Virus record (IMG/VR): IMGVR_UViG_3300028591_000074
Location: 1 to 64,000 of that record
Strand: one strand, 5' to 3'
DNA length: 64,000 nucleotides
Origin: a virus
Taxonomy: Duplodnaviria; Caudoviricetes
Shown here: positions 6,813 to 20,441 of the stretch, one piece after another
Layout of the letters: each line of letters begins with the position of its first letter
How positions within the stretch are numbered: position 1 is the first letter of the stretch
Notes under the pieces: model-generated
Databases searched by the model: none
Seen by the model: only the letters and a program-made list of their open reading frames with translations
What the model was told of the DNA's origin: nothing
Position numbers and translations under genes: made by a program

Positions 6813-7874
6813 TCAAAATATTATATCAGAATCGTCAATTTTTGTATTTTTCAGATACTTTTCCGTGTATAATACTCCCCAATTTGCTTTCATCAGGAAC
6901 TCATCAATTCGATTGTAATCCGGTTTTGGTGGAAGTACGGAATGTTCTTTTGCATGTTCCAATCTGGATTCATAATCGTGAACCATATCAAAGAATTCCT
7001 TTGTAGGCTTCCCATCTTCACCAAGATACTTACCGTTTCGAATATCCATGAGCAAATCATGTTCTTTCTCACGATAAGTTACAATCTTACCATCAAGTAA
7101 CAAATCTTCACACATCATATAAAGACGAAGCAGATGCATAGAATGTTTTGCAATCTTACCATGTGCAAGTGCATGATCATTCCGCTTACTGTTCTTATTA
7201 TACTCACGTATAACTGTATTAAGGGAATTAAGTACAGATGCAAGATCTTCTGCCGGATAATCTTCTACATTAAGATCAAGAACAATCTTACCATCTTTCA
7301 GCTTCACATCTACATCATGAATGTTGTGCTGATATTCTAAGGTATCATGCATACCATTCAAAGTTTTTACAATGTGTGCATTATATTCTTCTTCAGACAT
7401 TGCAACCAGTGATTTCTGCTGAAGCCGATACATCTGCTGATTTGCGTATCCCATAAATGATCCGATACATTTATTAGACAAGAACATATCGTAGTTGTTC
7501 AGGAGATCTACGCCCAAGGAACTCATATACAAGTAGTGTTCTGGTTTTAACCCTAGCATCTCAATTACATTAGGGTTGCAGTTAGTAAGCAGACTAACCA
7601 CTTTCTTCAGTGAGTAAATCGTTGTGTCTGTTGGTTCATTACAAACCTGCTCAAATCCCCTATTAAGTAAAATATCCAGTGCAGAATTCAATGCTATCCC
7701 TCGAATATCAACATCTGAGGTTTCAATATTTGTACCGTAGGCGTAAGAACCGCCGAGTCCAACAAGAATAGGATCATGCAATTCCGGAGTTGTATCTAAA
7801 AATTCATACGGAGATTCATCAACAGAAATATTTAGTTTCCTCAGAGAACCTATTACATATTCTTTAAGTTTCAT
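6813..7874 (-). CDS. Pol-beta superfamily nucleotidyltransferase (RNA-repair associated, RlaP-like)
   Basis: GGSYAYG...SDVDIRG catalytic motif, NPNVIEML, KHSMHLLRL; overlaps Pnkp-like gene. Confidence 0.82.
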   Translation of the reverse strand: MKLKEYVIGSLRKLNISVDESPYEFLDTTPELHDPILVGLGGSYAYGTNIETSDVDIRGIALNSALDILLNRGFEQVCNEPTDTTIYSLKKVVSLLTNCNPNVIEMLGLKPEHYLYMSSLGVDLLNNYDMFLSNKCIGSFMGYANQQMYRLQQKSLVAMSEEEYNAHIVKTLNGMHDTLEYQHNIHDVDVKLKDGKIVLDLNVEDYPAEDLASVLNSLNTVIREYNKNSKRNDHALAHGKIAKHSMHLLRLYMMCEDLLLDGKIVTYREKEHDLLMDIRNGKYLGEDGKPTKEFFDMVHDYESRLEHAKEHSVLPPKPDYNRIDEFLMKANWGVLYTEKYLKNTKIDDSDIIF

Positions 7875-10089
7875 CTTTCACCTCCGTAGTCTTCATGTAT
7901 TTGTAAAACTCATTTCTCAAGTAAATGATATCTCTTGGTATCAAGTCTCTCTGCTCTCTTGTTTCCGCATCATTGTATAACTTCTGACAGAACGAATAGA
8001 ACATGTTAGCTTCGGGAGTAGTAAGTGACCCAGTTCTCCGGAAATATCCAGATCTAAGAACTTCATGTGCTACACCCCTCATAAATTTCCAAAAGTTGTA
8101 GTACTGAAGTTTTATCTTAACCATTTTACCTTCTGCATCTTCTATAACAAAACCCTCAATGATTTTTCCGTTGTATTCATAACACTCAGAAGTTACTTCG
8201 TTATACCAATCAACAAAATCACCCCAGTTAGCAATCTCAAATGCCTTTTCTTTGACCTTAATCTTGAGTGCAGATCCGATATTCAGAAGATTTTCGTAAG
8301 GAATCTGCTCAAACTTCATTGTGTTTTTCACTATAGTGAGTAAAAACAGTTCTGATTTTGGATACTCAATAACATGAGGATCATTCTTCATATCTACACA
8401 TTCAAAAACAAATGAAACATCCTTGTCCTTACATATTTCTTTCATCCTATCTCTAGAAGGTTCAGACATTTTAGAGAACAGCATATTTTTGAATAGTTCG
8501 GCATAGTTTCCTGTAGGATTAGATTTTGTAGTTATGAAAAGATCGTCATTATCTGCATCATAGGATACAATTCCGAGGAACCCATTTTCCTTGACATAAC
8601 AAGTTACAGGAAAATTCAATGAATACTTCAACATGTCGAACTTTGTTTCCAGCATTTCGTTGATATTGAAGAACTTATCATATGCCCGAGCAGCAACTTT
8701 CATACGTAACATGTCAATATAAAGGCCTCTTGCCTTTACTGTCTGCTCGTTCCAAACCTTGTCATAGAAAGCATCTCGTGTGAAATTGAATGAGGAAATA
8801 TTGCCGAACTGCTTCTCAGTTACATGCTTGTTTGCTCGCAGAGCTAACACCACATCTGCAATGCTACTGATGTTGAGTTCAGTCTGTGTAGCAATTTTCT
8901 CAGGTTCTTTAAAAACATTGTTTTTGATCTCAACTTCATTAAACCCATTATGTGTCAGTTCGAGAATCCGGAGATGTCCACCAAACTCAACATCATTCTC
9001 AAGATCATAAACTCGGCCTCTAAGTTTCATAGGAGAAGCCTTTGTGTTTCTGTGTCCAAAAATCTGATACTGAGAATCTGAAGTAGTTCTCATCCAGGAA
9101 TCTGCTACAGTTTCGTAATCGTCATAATTACCAACACCTTTAATCATCTGCTCTGTGGACATGAAGCTCAAGTTATCCGGAAGTGCTGCAATACCTGCAT
9201 GAGATACAAATACATCCTTATTATCATACTTGTACCATGCACACTGTCCCAACTTGCGATACAGCTGACGAATCGCTTTTACATCAACATGTGCTTCCTC
9301 AAGCTGCTTCCGAGTAACCAGTTCGAATTCTTTGGACCTTCCTACTCCACCATGTGCATAGATCCAAAGCCATCTTTCATGGTTGCCTTCGAGAACAAGT
9401 ACATTCTTCTTGTTAATAATCTGAGTGAACCAATTTACAACTTCAACATTCTCAATTCCGCGATCAATCAAATCGCCTACGAAGATGTACATTGTGTTGT
9501 CATCAAGTCCATCTTTGAAATACTCCATAAGTGCTGTATAGCAACCATGGATATCTCCAACATGCACAACCTTATCATAACTTGAAAAATCAACCTGACG
9601 CATCCAAATAGTATCAAGCTCCTCAGGCTTGATCACCTTTACACCGGAAGGAATCTTCTGAGTACCAAATCTTGAATACATCTTATCAATGACATACTCC
9701 GGAACCTGCTTGAGTACAGGTCTAGATGCATTCCGTCGCTTACACTCTTCGATAGGAAGATCTGTCATGTCAATACAGAAAATTCGGTAACGATAGGTAT
9801 CGCACATCTCTTTGTAACGGTTGATTTCAACTGTCTTAGAGTTTGTAGCATCAATAACAGTGAATTCACCATTACGCATACGAATCTCCAAAAGTTTGAA
9901 AAGCATGTTCCAAACATCCTTTTCATTCTTCTGACTGATCTCTACCCTGCCATCTGCGGTCTGCTGTGCTGACTGACACTGAAGCCGAATTTCATCAGCT
10001 GAAAGTGCATAAGGACGCAATCCATTCTGATCGATGAATGTTGATTTTCCGCACCCAGGTGCTCCTCTAAATAACAAAAGTATTCTCAT
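7864..10089 (-). CDS. Pnkp-like RNA repair enzyme: polynucleotide kinase + metallophosphoesterase + RNA ligase
   Basis: GAPGCGKS P-loop; GDIHG/GDLIDRG/GNHE phosphoesterase; KENG and EGFVI...KIK ligase motifs. Confidence 0.88.
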   Translation of the reverse strand: MRILLLFRGAPGCGKSTFIDQNGLRPYALSADEIRLQCQSAQQTADGRVEISQKNEKDVWNMLFKLLEIRMRNGEFTVIDATNSKTVEINRYKEMCDTYRYRIFCIDMTDLPIEECKRRNASRPVLKQVPEYVIDKMYSRFGTQKIPSGVKVIKPEELDTIWMRQVDFSSYDKVVHVGDIHGCYTALMEYFKDGLDDNTMYIFVGDLIDRGIENVEVVNWFTQIINKKNVLVLEGNHERWLWIYAHGGVGRSKEFELVTRKQLEEAHVDVKAIRQLYRKLGQCAWYKYDNKDVFVSHAGIAALPDNLSFMSTEQMIKGVGNYDDYETVADSWMRTTSDSQYQIFGHRNTKASPMKLRGRVYDLENDVEFGGHLRILELTHNGFNEVEIKNNVFKEPEKIATQTELNISSIADVVLALRANKHVTEKQFGNISSFNFTRDAFYDKVWNEQTVKARGLYIDMLRMKVAARAYDKFFNINEMLETKFDMLKYSLNFPVTCYVKENGFLGIVSYDADNDDLFITTKSNPTGNYAELFKNMLFSKMSEPSRDRMKEICKDKDVSFVFECVDMKNDPHVIEYPKSELFLLTIVKNTMKFEQIPYENLLNIGSALKIKVKEKAFEIANWGDFVDWYNEVTSECYEYNGKIIEGFVIEDAEGKMVKIKLQYYNFWKFMRGVAHEVLRSGYFRRTGSLTTPEANMFYSFCQKLYNDAETREQRDLIPRDIIYLRNEFYKYMKTTEVKDET

Positions 10090-16811: not shown

Positions 16812-17036
16812 TTAAATTGATTTCCTTATGATAATATCATCTATTGCTACACCAAAGGCATCAGCAAGGATTACCATGTTATCTATGGTTGGCATGGAAT
16901 CACCACGGAACCACTTGAATATTGCCTGCGGAGTACCGAACCCGAAGATACCTTGAACATCAGATGTTTTCATATTCTTAGACTTCATGATATTCTTTAT
17001 ATTTGTTCCAGTTGCTACTGTATCTATTACCATCAT
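16812..17036 (-). CDS. XRE-family HTH transcriptional regulator
   Basis: TPQAIFKWFRGDSMPTIDNMVILA; start at 17036 behind AAAGGGG. Confidence 0.85.
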   Translation of the reverse strand: MMVIDTVATGTNIKNIMKSKNMKTSDVQGIFGFGTPQAIFKWFRGDSMPTIDNMVILADAFGVAIDDIIIRKSI

Positions 17037-17066
17037 GATGCTATATCCCCTTTCAGTAATTTTGAG

Positions 17067-17142
17067 TACCCACGATGGGATTTGAACCCACACCATATAC
17101 ATACTTTAAATATGTTGCTTCTTCCTATTGCGCTACGTGGGC
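17067..17142 (-). tRNA. tRNA-Leu(TAA), short variable arm
   Basis: ACATA-TTTAAAG-TATGT arm, A73. Confidence 0.8.
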
Positions 17143-17395: not shown

Positions 17396-17497
17396 TCAAA
17401 TCTTACCATTATCTGCACACGCAAATTGGAAAGCCAATGATGAATAGAGGCTTTCGGAAAGTTCGCTATGCAGATATAATGATCTGAATGTAGTCAT
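17396..17497 (-). CDS. leader peptide A (MTTFRSLYLHSELSESLYSSLAFQFACADNGKI)
   Basis: AAAGGGG SD; 16-residue run only of S/L/Y/H/E; followed by terminator. Confidence 0.85.
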   Translation of the reverse strand: MTTFRSLYLHSELSESLYSSLAFQFACADNGKI

Positions 17498-17554: not shown

Positions 17555-17573
17555 CTATACTATTGGTATATTT

Positions 17574-17611
17574 CAAGTTAGTTGCAAGTTAGTTGCAAGT
17601 TAGTTGCAAGT
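17574..17611. repeat. 11-bp tandem repeat (CAAGTTAGTTG) x3.4
   Basis: direct reading. Confidence 0.9.
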
Positions 17612-17684
17612 ACAGACGGAGAGATTCGAACTCTCAACCAAAGGCTTAGAAGACCTTTGCGCTGATCCATTGCGCCACGCCTGT
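17611..17684 (-). tRNA. tRNA-Arg(TCT)
   Basis: AAGGT-CTTCTAA-GCCTT arm. Confidence 0.9.
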
Positions 17685-17690
17685 ATGAAT

Positions 17691-17762
17691 CTCCCACGGC
17701 AGGACTCGAACCTGCAACCACTCGGTTAACAGCCGATTTCTCAACCATTGAGATACGTGGGA
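17691..17762 (-). tRNA. tRNA-Asn(GTT)
   Basis: TCGG-CTGTTAA-CCGA arm. Confidence 0.9.
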
Positions 17763-17767
17763 ATACA

Positions 17768-17837
17768 AGTACCGCATCAGAGTTGAACTGATCTCTATAG
17801 TTTTGCAGACTACATGCTTCCCGGAAGCAGACGGTAC
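17768..17837 (-). tRNA. tRNA-Cys(GCA)
   Basis: GTAGT-CTGCAAA-ACTAT arm, U73, short D loop. Confidence 0.82.
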
Positions 17838-17844
17838 ATTATAT

Positions 17845-17915
17845 CAGCCGATTCTGGAATTGAACCAAAATCTGATGAGTCAGAATCATCTGTGTTACCA
17901 TTACACCAATCGGCC
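17845..17915 (-). tRNA. tRNA-Gln(CTG)
   Basis: GATGA-TTCTGAC-TCATC arm. Confidence 0.9.
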
Positions 17916-17954
17916 ATGCAACTTATTTGTCCAACACGTACAGACAAGTTATAG

Positions 17955-18025
17955 CAGGTCCTGCACGTTTCGAGCGCACACCATCAAGGTTGGAGCTTGA
18001 TATGCTACCATTACACCAAGGACCC
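17955..18025 (-). tRNA. tRNA-Trp(CCA)
   Basis: TCAAG-CTCCAAC-CTTGA arm; T-loop CTCGAAA. Confidence 0.85.
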
Positions 18026-18033
18026 GGAGAAAG

Positions 18034-18106
18034 TGGATGTGGAGAGGTTTGAACTCTCGGCTTGATGCTTAAGAGGCAACTGCTCTTCCAACTGAGCTAC
18101 ACATCC
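18034..18106 (-). tRNA. tRNA-Lys(CTT)
   Basis: TGC-CTCTTAA-GCA arm. Confidence 0.88.
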
Positions 18107-18112
18107 ATATAC

Positions 18113-18173
18113 AGGACGCATTTTGGTTTCAATGATTAAAAGTCATTTCCAAAAGATTTGCTGTATGCGTCCC
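18113..18173 (-). ncRNA. armless tRNA-Lys(TTT)-like hairpin
   Basis: GGACGCA/TGCGTCC closing stem, TTTTGG/CCAAAA, AATGA-CTTTTAA-TCATT anticodon-like arm; no D/T arms. Confidence 0.55.
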
Positions 18174-18176
18174 AAA

Positions 18177-18248
18177 TGGGTGTGACAAGATTCGAACTTG
18201 CGGTATACAGGTTAAAAGCCTGTTGCCATACCACTTGGCTACACACCC
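18177..18248 (-). tRNA. tRNA-Lys(TTT)
   Basis: ACAGG-CTTTTAA-CCTGT arm. Confidence 0.9.
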
Positions 18249-18253
18249 AAAAA

Positions 18254-18327
18254 TTCAAGGTGGTGGATTCGAACCACCGGCAATCTGCGTATCAGACAGA
18301 CACTCTAACCAACTGAGTTAACCTTGA
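18254..18327 (-). tRNA. tRNA-Ile(GAT)
   Basis: TCTGT-CTGATAC-GCAGA arm. Confidence 0.9.
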
Positions 18328-18328
18328 G

Positions 18329-18400
18329 TGGTCTCGGATAGTTTCGGGCTATCGACACTCTGGGCTTCAACCAGATGCTCTTCCTCTGAGCTACGAGACC
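18329..18400 (-). tRNA. tRNA-Phe(GAA)
   Basis: TCTGG-TTGAAGC-CCAGA arm; T-loop CCCGAAA. Confidence 0.85.
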
Positions 18401-18406
18401 AAAATT

Positions 18407-18450
18407 AAAAAGCCATGAGGCTGATGCTGACTGTCAGACCCATGACTTTT
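18407..18450 (-). terminator. attenuator terminator B
   Basis: AGTCATGGGTCTGA...TCAGCCTCATGGCT-TTTT. Confidence 0.75.
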
Positions 18451-18486
18451 CTTCTCTATAAGGTATAAGATAGAAAATATGTTAGA

Positions 18487-18588
18487 TCATGTAAGACAGT
18501 CTATAGATTCAGCACAATTAAACCAGTTTTTATAACAAAACTGATTTCTAATGTTCTTAATCTGGTTGCTAATAGACTGATACATCAT
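18487..18588 (-). CDS. leader peptide B (MMYQSISNQIKNIRNQFCYKNWFNCAESIDCLT)
   Basis: AAGGAAAGGAG SD; N/Q/I/K/R/F/C/W core; followed by terminator. Confidence 0.85.
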   Translation of the reverse strand: MMYQSISNQIKNIRNQFCYKNWFNCAESIDCLT

Positions 18589-18620
18589 CTTCTTATTATC
18601 TCCTTTCCTTATAGATGTAG

Positions 18621-18693
18621 TTGCAGGGACCGGATTTGAACCGGCAACTTTCAGTTTATGAGACTGAACTGCTTACCATTGCATCACCCTGCG
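18621..18693 (-). tRNA. tRNA-Met(CAT), C1xA72 mismatch (initiator-like)
   Basis: TCAGT-CTCATAA-ACTGA arm. Confidence 0.85.
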
Positions 18694-18930: not shown

Positions 18931-19705
18931 ATTTGTCTTGAGATTACAGACAAACGTAACACTCATTAAAACCCTTATTTGTTAGGCTTATATCCACGTA
19001 CCTTTCAATACGTTAGTGCTATGCGTACCTTTAAGGTGGCTATACCTTCATAATTCAGAACTACTCGACCTACTTTTCGACCTTAAAAGAGTTGTACGGA
19101 CTCTCCTAATGTCTACTTGTTCGATCAAACAGGTTCACCTTGCGAGTTCCCCTGTTCCACATTACATTACTGCTGTGGACTTAACGCATTTTCATTCTGA
19201 ACCCCTACTGACTTTTGCTTTTTGGCGATTTTTGTTGGACTTGAACCAACTACCTTTTGTTTAGAAGACAAATACTCTACCCAATGAGCTAAAAAATCAG
19301 TATGTTGGATGTAGATGTGCAGTAGGTTTAGTTTCGTAATCTTTTGAACTACAAAATGCTAAACACCTACGATGTACGTTCCTTTGCATCGTACTTGTAC
19401 TGCCATTTCTGACTGGATATCACCCTTGTTTGCTAAACTCGGATTTATTACCCATTAAATGTCTAACTACCATATCCGTTTGTTTTGCATGTTAGTTAGC
19501 CCTTGCGGAGCCTTGTTCCCATCAGTTGACCTAAAACAAGTTTCTCACTAACCAAACAAATATAGCATTGAATCCACCTATGGTGAACTTAGATTCCTTT
19601 TCAGAATCTATTAAGACAAGTATTGCATACTCTTACCGTTTCCGGCGATAGGCTTACCTTCCTACCTTTCGATATATTACTATACCATATAGGCGTATGC
19701 ACCAT
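18931..19705 (-). ncRNA. large structured ncRNA, GOLLD-like, with embedded tRNA-Arg
   Basis: ~775 nt non-coding, many hairpins with GNRA-type loops (GCAA, GAAA), terminal TGTCTGTAATCTCAAGACA hairpin, inside tRNA array. Confidence 0.55.
19223..19298 (-). tRNA. tRNA-Arg(TCT), second copy, CCA encoded
   Basis: TTTGT-CTTCTAA-ACAAA arm; GATTTTT/AAAAATC-G-CCA. Confidence 0.85.
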
Positions 19706-19782: not shown

Positions 19783-19854
19783 ATGTGCGAGTGAGAGAAG
19801 TGCCTGTTCCCCTCACTCAGATTTTAATTTTTTGTAATCAGTAGAAACTGATAG

Positions 19855-20160: not shown

Positions 20161-20331
20161 CTACCTTCGTCTATATCCTATGTACTTGGCGACTTTTCGA
20201 TTCCATCCAGTTCTTCCTGTGGCGATAGCATCTGGATCTACCGGGGCATCAAATTTGCATACGAAACTAAACCCGCGTGTTGCAGGATGATCCACGATCA
20301 TTGTGAAGTTGATAGTTTCGTAAATCTTCAT
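20161..20331 (-). CDS. leader peptide C (56 aa, MKIYETINFTMIVDHPATRG...DAPVDPDAIATGRTG...RRR)
   Basis: AGGAG SD before ATG 20331; rich in A/V/R/G/T/D/P/M; followed by terminator. Confidence 0.82.
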   Translation of the reverse strand: MKIYETINFTMIVDHPATRGFSFVCKFDAPVDPDAIATGRTGWNRKVAKYIGYRRR

Positions 20332-20412: not shown

Positions 20413-20441
20413 ATAGTAACATATTGTGGATTAGATGTCAA
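20413..20441 (-). promoter_or_regulatory. sigma-A type promoter of tRNA array
   Basis: TTGACA-17-(TG.)TACTAT. Confidence 0.75.

Follow-up and report, generated by a model that had tools for sequence, protein, structure and literature searches.

Why phages carry tRNA genes is a long-standing question, to which codon compensation and the replacement of cleaved host tRNAs are opposing answers. The locus analyzed here adds to it the question of why three short open reading frames, each with a terminator, stand ahead of three blocks of tRNA genes in one phage array, and in particular what the middle one, leader B, does. Our reading, which we regard as probable, is that leader B is a ribosome-mediated, multivalent transcription attenuator of the Yanofsky type that gates the tRNA genes of block B; translation of the ORF, termination in vivo and the trigger are inferred, and there are no RNA or translation data. 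The DNA examined (the window) is 64,000 nucleotides long and forms the beginning of a virus contig of 253.5 kb, from a large tailed phage. Tail sheath and portal genes lie upstream of the tRNA array, which comprises 26 tRNAs and is on the minus strand (20080-16354), as are all elements of the array described below. The start of the contig is repeated at 236,021 (G000 C1:236021-253527), and the last five tRNAs of the array recur at 252961-253411 (G000 C1); the contig therefore has a long terminal repeat.

The close relatives of this phage all come from metagenomes, and blastn against cultured phages gave isolated tRNA matches only, with no cultured phage matching as such. Related arrays were located via searches with the sheath protein and leader C (L001-L003, L184, L185, L190, L194, L197, L199, L202 and L203), and they provided eight leader B peptide alleles, which form one close clade. 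Sheath neighbourhoods L004 and L186-L188 are without tRNAs; in 19 more distant sheath relatives the tRNAs are dispersed and, in a rough scan for Shine-Dalgarno (SD)-led ORFs, without matched leaders. Six lone tRNAs elsewhere in the phage genome have no leader/terminator unit on inspection.

Leader B starts with an SD sequence 10 nt past the 3' end of tRNA-Met (18600-18610), which is purine-rich in all alleles, followed by an ORF of 33 codons that runs from 18588 to 18487 and ends with TGA. The gated block B (17610-18400) consists of tRNA-Phe, Ile, Lys(TTT), a tRNA-like element, Lys(CTT), Trp, Gln(CTG), Cys, Asn and Arg(TCT), the Phe and Ile anticodons being GAA and GAT. Codons 8-25 of the ORF (18514-18567) form the presumed sensing core. 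Seventeen of its 18 residues belong to the set F, I, K, W, Q, C, N and R, with all eight amino acids represented and Tyr19 as the sole exception, and all 17 matching codons are readable by block-B anticodons under standard wobble. An initial annotation, made without database searches, had proposed this match, and it was borne out when the ORF, SD, codons and anticodons were checked. The block-B set accounts for 35% of the codons of the phage proteome, which gives a binomial p of 1.7e-7 for the core, and none of the 50,917 32-codon windows in the phage's own 199 proteins reaches 17/18. In the zone of codons 2-25, set by folding and not by eye, 19 of 24 codons are matched (p ~1e-5); this score together with all eight amino acids is seen twice in 3 million. 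The same annotation held that the match extends down to the codon. The codons that it cited are correct (Gln4, Gln9 and Gln16 are CAG, Gln4 lying outside the 18-codon core; Arg14 is AGA, Lys11 AAG, Lys20 AAA, and Ile10 and Ile13 are ATT), but as evidence this is weak: given the amino acids, p is ~0.027 for synonymous choices that all fit the block anticodons, the rule is broken in some alleles, and CAG makes up 51% of the Gln codons of this phage.

Two sister leaders are built on a similar plan. Leader C (56 codons and terminator, 20161-20331; promoter 20441-20413) stands ahead of Ala, Val, Arg, Gly, GOLLD, Arg, Thr, Asp, Pro and Met, and leader A (33 codons and terminator, 17396-17497; promoter 17554-17526), which has 16 consecutive S/L/Y/H/E codons, precedes three Leu tRNAs, an HTH gene, Glu, His, Ser, Tyr and Ser. 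Codons of the leader's own block number 32/55 in C, 21/32 in B and 16/32 in A, and the off-diagonal values are not above chance. When the 26 tRNAs were dealt randomly into blocks, none of 100,000 deals matched all three leaders as well as the real array does, and 232 of 100,000 did so for B alone.

A different explanation of these leaders is that they sense general translation stress, so that any slowing of the ribosome would be registered, as with the vmlR or topAI uORFs, and the match to the block would merely reflect AT-rich sequence or history. The switch modelled below would indeed be flipped by a stall anywhere in codons 1-25, leader C contains 18 of the 20 amino acids (F, I, K, W, C and N among them), and long tRNA arrays of bacteria are induced by general translational stress (PMC8421152). 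This explanation nevertheless leaves the composition unaccounted for: random ORFs with the AT-rich base composition of the leader reach 17/18 only 71 times per million, so that AT-richness is insufficient, and neither the rare W and C nor the fact that three leaders each match a different block, with GC-rich codons in C, would be expected. We think it unlikely on these grounds, with the reservation that general stress sensing and sensing of the block tRNAs are not mutually exclusive.

If leader B senses the tRNAs that it gates, its codons and the block are expected to change together, and comparison of the related sequences suggests covariation that is present but imperfect. In two alleles, L194 and L197, the core reaches 18/18. 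In array L003, block B has lost tRNA-Arg and leader B is without Arg; block A is without His and Glu tRNAs, and leader A without H and E. L185 and L202 are devoid of Leu-CAA/TAA, and in leader A TTA is replaced by TCA and TTG by ATG; L185 has gained Glu-CTC along with a GAG codon. On the other hand, the allele shared by L002, L199 and L202 has CAA and CGG, unreadable by the block. In L190, four CAG codons are retained although the block has no Gln tRNA, and leader A contains neither H nor E although His and Glu tRNAs follow it; two Gln codons likewise persist in L003 in the absence of a Gln tRNA, and a GAG codon occurs in L202 in the absence of Glu-CTC. The arrays look mosaic, and we infer that leaders and distal tRNAs could be reassorted. 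In window-like alleles the only out-of-block core residues are Ser and Tyr, whose tRNAs are carried by block A, next after B, with no evident terminator between the two blocks.

The helices required for attenuation are found in the leader B RNA. The intrinsic terminator (18401-18450) has a stem of 18450-18434 with 18424-18408, a 9-nt loop and a U-tract at 18411-18401. Region 2, the 5' arm of the antiterminator (18487-18504), overlaps the last codons and the stop of the ORF, and region 3 (18429-18445) is common to antiterminator and terminator, with five of its pairing bases located in the terminator loop. Pairing of the leader 3' end with the terminator arm, and an alternative pairing with the start of the leader, had been predicted in the initial annotation, and both exist. 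The former consists of 18501-18495 with 18435-18429 and 18491-18487 with 18445-18441 (duplex about -22 kcal/mol), and the latter of 18504-18497 with 18579-18572, the second partner being region 1 (18572-18579), the anti-antiterminator that would pair when no ribosome is loaded. The last sensing codon is separated from the antiterminator arm by a spacer of four mostly out-of-block codons, Ala-Glu-Ser-Ile (18502-18513), which is approximately one ribosome 3' footprint in length; a similar spacer is present in leader A.

The switch itself was modelled, by folding with the RNA under the ribosome masked. The whole leader folds with z = -7.35, and free RNA adopts the 1:2 pairing plus the terminator, the latter with a probability of 0.94. 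With the A site at codons 1-25, terminator probability is at most 0.07, and from codon 26 to the stop it is again 0.94; the modelled switch point coincides with the end of the matched core, and reducing the footprint from 15 to 6 nt shifts the boundary only from codon 25 to codon 28. Shuffling of the upstream sequence disrupted the terminator in 11 of 500 trials. Geometry, folding by ribosome position and the retention of both exclusive helices in relatives all support the attenuator reading with which the annotation had started. In the sister leaders, equilibrium folding does not switch A and switches C only partly; their antiterminator duplexes are stable. A leader C allele of L184 (L184:3248-3508) and L202, in which the 3' end and spacer have been replaced, retains pairing with the terminator arm (-20 kcal/mol).

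Under the proposed mechanism, transcription is inferred to start at 20441, to pass attenuator C and block C, and to reach leader B, where a ribosome would load at the SD just after tRNA-Met. Fast reading of the Phe, Ile, Lys, Trp, Gln, Cys, Asn and Arg codons would bring the ribosome to codon 26 or beyond and cover region 2, upon which the 3:4 terminator would form and transcription would stop near 18403, before tRNA-Phe. Without a ribosome, the 1:2 pairing would likewise leave the terminator free. When a tRNA is scarce, the ribosome would linger in codons 8-25, region 2 could pair with region 3 before the 3' arm of the terminator is made, and the nine block-B tRNAs would be transcribed. These tRNAs would read the leader's own codons, which would close a negative feedback loop.

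Comparison of the eight alleles bears both on this mechanism and on the possibility that the hairpin is merely a constitutive terminator or processing signal that sets block stoichiometry, with the ORF translated or not and no regulation involved. All alleles keep the SD, start, frame and stop of leader B and differ in length by whole codons only, and in two metagenomes a gene has been called for a relative with 91% identity. Pairing in the terminator is 94.8% across alleles, with two-sided changes at three pairs (6-7 of 500 shuffles score as high). In the antiterminator, 99.1% of cells are paired over nine sequences, with one compensatory change, C-G to U-A, in L003, located in the terminator loop; covariation of this helix is not above shuffles (157/500). 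Region 1 has one mismatch in L194 and L197 and is not clearly kept in L003. Lack of regulation would fit with the folding of free RNA into the terminator in all alleles, and with antiterminator covariation that is not significant alone, but it does not explain why five bases of the terminator loop are kept as partners of the ORF end, to the point of compensation in L003, why SD, frame and stop are conserved, and why the switch point falls at the end of the core, and we consider it very improbable. A ribosome-controlled attenuator has its own difficulty in two alleles. On nascent RNA the antiterminator forms in all alleles (-19 to -26 kcal/mol, the inner hairpin included), and in six of the eight equilibrium folding gives a read-through window inside the core; L003 shows read-through at one codon only and L194 at none. 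As the modelled terminator wins at nearly every ribosome position in these two, they appear to need kinetic control.

The notion that the peptide itself matters, as a ligand-responsive nascent arrest peptide or a small trans-acting protein, can draw on the invariance of Q16, F17, C18, N21, W22, F23, D30 and C31 in all alleles, but the invariant core residues are block amino acids, D30 and C31 are encoded within the antiterminator arm, L003 departs in both order and length, and the peptide has neither a family match nor relatives outside the clade, which leaves this notion with almost no credence. The pertinent searches gave no PHROG or NCBIfam match, and hence no profile match to a known leader or arrest peptide family; phmmer against 1.8 billion representatives found one true leader B relative (P0121), the other four matches being long proteins of 552-1259 aa, and neither phmmer nor a pattern search over 185,579 bacterial genomes revealed relatives outside this clade. 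A back-translated pattern of the core had no match in viral contigs. At the RNA level, the leader of block B (18401-18619) has no Rfam match down to E = 1, whether to a T-box or to another cis-element.

Returning to the attenuator, we infer that its natural trigger is more likely the loss of functional tRNA, by anticodon-nuclease cleavage or by degradation in infection, than amino-acid starvation, for which additional tRNA would be no remedy. The strength of the SD and the TTGACA-type promoters point, by inference, to a host resembling Bacillota. Polymerase moves ahead of the ribosome in B. subtilis, where attenuators of this type depend on pausing (PMC9226507); if the host does belong to Bacillota, a pause site would be needed for this reason, and none is established. 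A hairpin internal to the core (18547-18520) is, by inference, no more than a candidate pause signal.

How transcription reaches leader B is a separate matter. A promoter scan found sigma70-like sites at 20441 and 17554 and none between, in agreement with the earlier statement that no promoter separates tRNA-Met from leader B; the best score ahead of B in the window is 6/12, and it is 6-8/12 in relatives, whereas the sites preceding C and A score 9-11/12 in all alleles. A weak promoter that uses the T-loop of the preceding tRNA as its -35 element scores 7-8/12 in L002, L003 and L194, and a phage-specific or weak tRNA-overlapping promoter before B is not excluded. The absence of a sigma70 promoter makes it plausible, by inference from sequence, that block B is reached by read-through of leader C, the serial logic inferred in the initial annotation. 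Leader C could itself respond to the loss of block-B tRNAs and open both gates: the six block-B amino acids it contains are located before or near its switch, and such sensing would resolve the problem of two gates in series. Just upstream of promoter A there are three to four tandem 11-nt repeats (17565-17607), seen also in L002, L003 and L185; they could serve as an operator, perhaps one bound by the HTH protein encoded inside block A (16812-17036).

Multivalent leader-peptide attenuators are known from amino-acid operons (thrL, the ilvGMEDA leader, pheL, trpL, hisL), and E. coli pheST is an example of attenuated aminoacyl-tRNA synthetase genes. With the operon leaders, whose mechanism is summarised in bioRxiv 10.1101/834739, leader B shares the SD-led short ORF, codons tied to downstream genes, the 1:2, 2:3 and 3:4 helices, a U-tract terminator and default termination without translation. 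It is distinct in being phage-borne, in gating tRNAs and not enzymes, in the occurrence of three units per array, in having gated products that read the leader themselves, and in the use of eight amino acids one to four times each, as opposed to runs of one to three. Every structural Yanofsky criterion that sequence can address is fulfilled, namely a short SD-led ORF upstream of regulated genes, control codons tied to downstream gene function, an intrinsic terminator between leader and first gene, and an exclusive antiterminator freed by a stalled ribosome (the latter in silico, two alleles needing kinetic control). Leader B fails the criterion that amino-acid biosynthesis, transport or synthetase genes be regulated, since tRNAs lie downstream, and for this reason it is a variant of the operon leaders named above and not one of them. 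Synthetase attenuators, such as uORFC-8-2 preceding cysS (PMC8632094) and the His leaders preceding Bacillus hisS paralogues (PMC2965389), are similar in that decoding at cognate codons is sensed and the supply of charged tRNA is raised; each of them deals with one amino acid and controls a synthetase, whereas leader B controls tRNA genes. A literature search, with most subscription journals outside its coverage, turned up no case of tRNA genes controlled by leader-peptide attenuation.

The trn operon (L-array) of Anabaena, repressed by TrcR (PMC8421152, PMC10272220), is likewise an extended tRNA array that stays silent as long as translation is unimpaired, as we infer for the array here. Its control is of another kind, relying on a DNA-binding repressor at the promoter that acts in an all-or-none, codon-blind fashion, and PMC8421152 makes no mention of attenuation or of a leader for it. 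The Anabaena operon is co-regulated with RNA repair genes, and this phage encodes a Pnkp-like kinase/phosphoesterase (phosphatase)/RNA ligase (7864-10089, minus strand), 6 kb downstream of the array, which is likely a tRNA-repair enzyme. The idea that similar leaders precede RNA-repair operons of gut Clostridia is not supported: the leader-B pattern had no matches in the 185,579 bacterial genomes and a search with leader C found none. Phage tRNAs can serve to counter anticodon nucleases (PMC10264068), which would explain their production once host tRNAs are cleaved; regulation is not described in that paper, nor is a leader, promoter or attenuation mentioned.

Should leader B work as proposed, phage tRNA blocks would be an inducible response and not a constitutive supplement, leader-peptide attenuation, formerly associated with enzymes and synthetases, would extend to tRNA genes with direct product feedback, and the leaders would represent compact sensors of the depletion of multiple tRNAs. 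The question of why phages carry tRNAs would thereby become testable with a 220-nt reporter. A further step, which is tentative and in our opinion possible more than probable, is to view the array as a codon-addressed census of the tRNA pool by nested attenuators (C covering a broad range along with its own block, B its own block and the Tyr and Ser of block A, and A its own block), by which the phage would detect tRNAs destroyed by anticodon-nuclease defence and replace only those. The leaders would then constitute a readable record of which tRNAs are attacked.

Several other elements of the array deserve description. The tRNA-like element between the two Lys tRNAs of block B (18108-18175) was missed by ARAGORN and Rfam and contains an ACAGCAA motif; its anticodon-like loop has TTT here and in L184 and L194, GTT in L002, L003, L185 and L202, and GCT in L190, and it is possibly a decoy for anticodon nucleases. 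A GOLLD RNA (18935-19371, 174.5 bits in Rfam) holds a tRNA (19223-19298) with the anticodon TCT here and TCC in L003 and L205; the GOLLD segment is absent from L190, L194, L197 and L202, and the one match of a GOLLD pattern search, L189, is unrelated. Between tRNA-Gly and GOLLD, about 300 nt (19400-19700) are conserved and non-coding, without an Rfam match. The tRNA-Met that precedes leader B (18620-18693) has an unpaired C1-A72, as in initiator tRNA, and is without the three G-C pairs of the initiator anticodon stem. ARAGORN calls the tRNA at 17066-17142 Phe(aaa); its stem frames TAA (Leu), and in L003 and L190 its orthologue receives the call Leu(taa). A conserved spacer of 72 nt (19783-19853) carries the 5' hairpin motif of leader C in reverse complement. 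Finally, an uncalled tRNA-like insert of 106 nt lies between Asp and Pro in L002 (L002:13882-13986) and is found also in L199 and L190.
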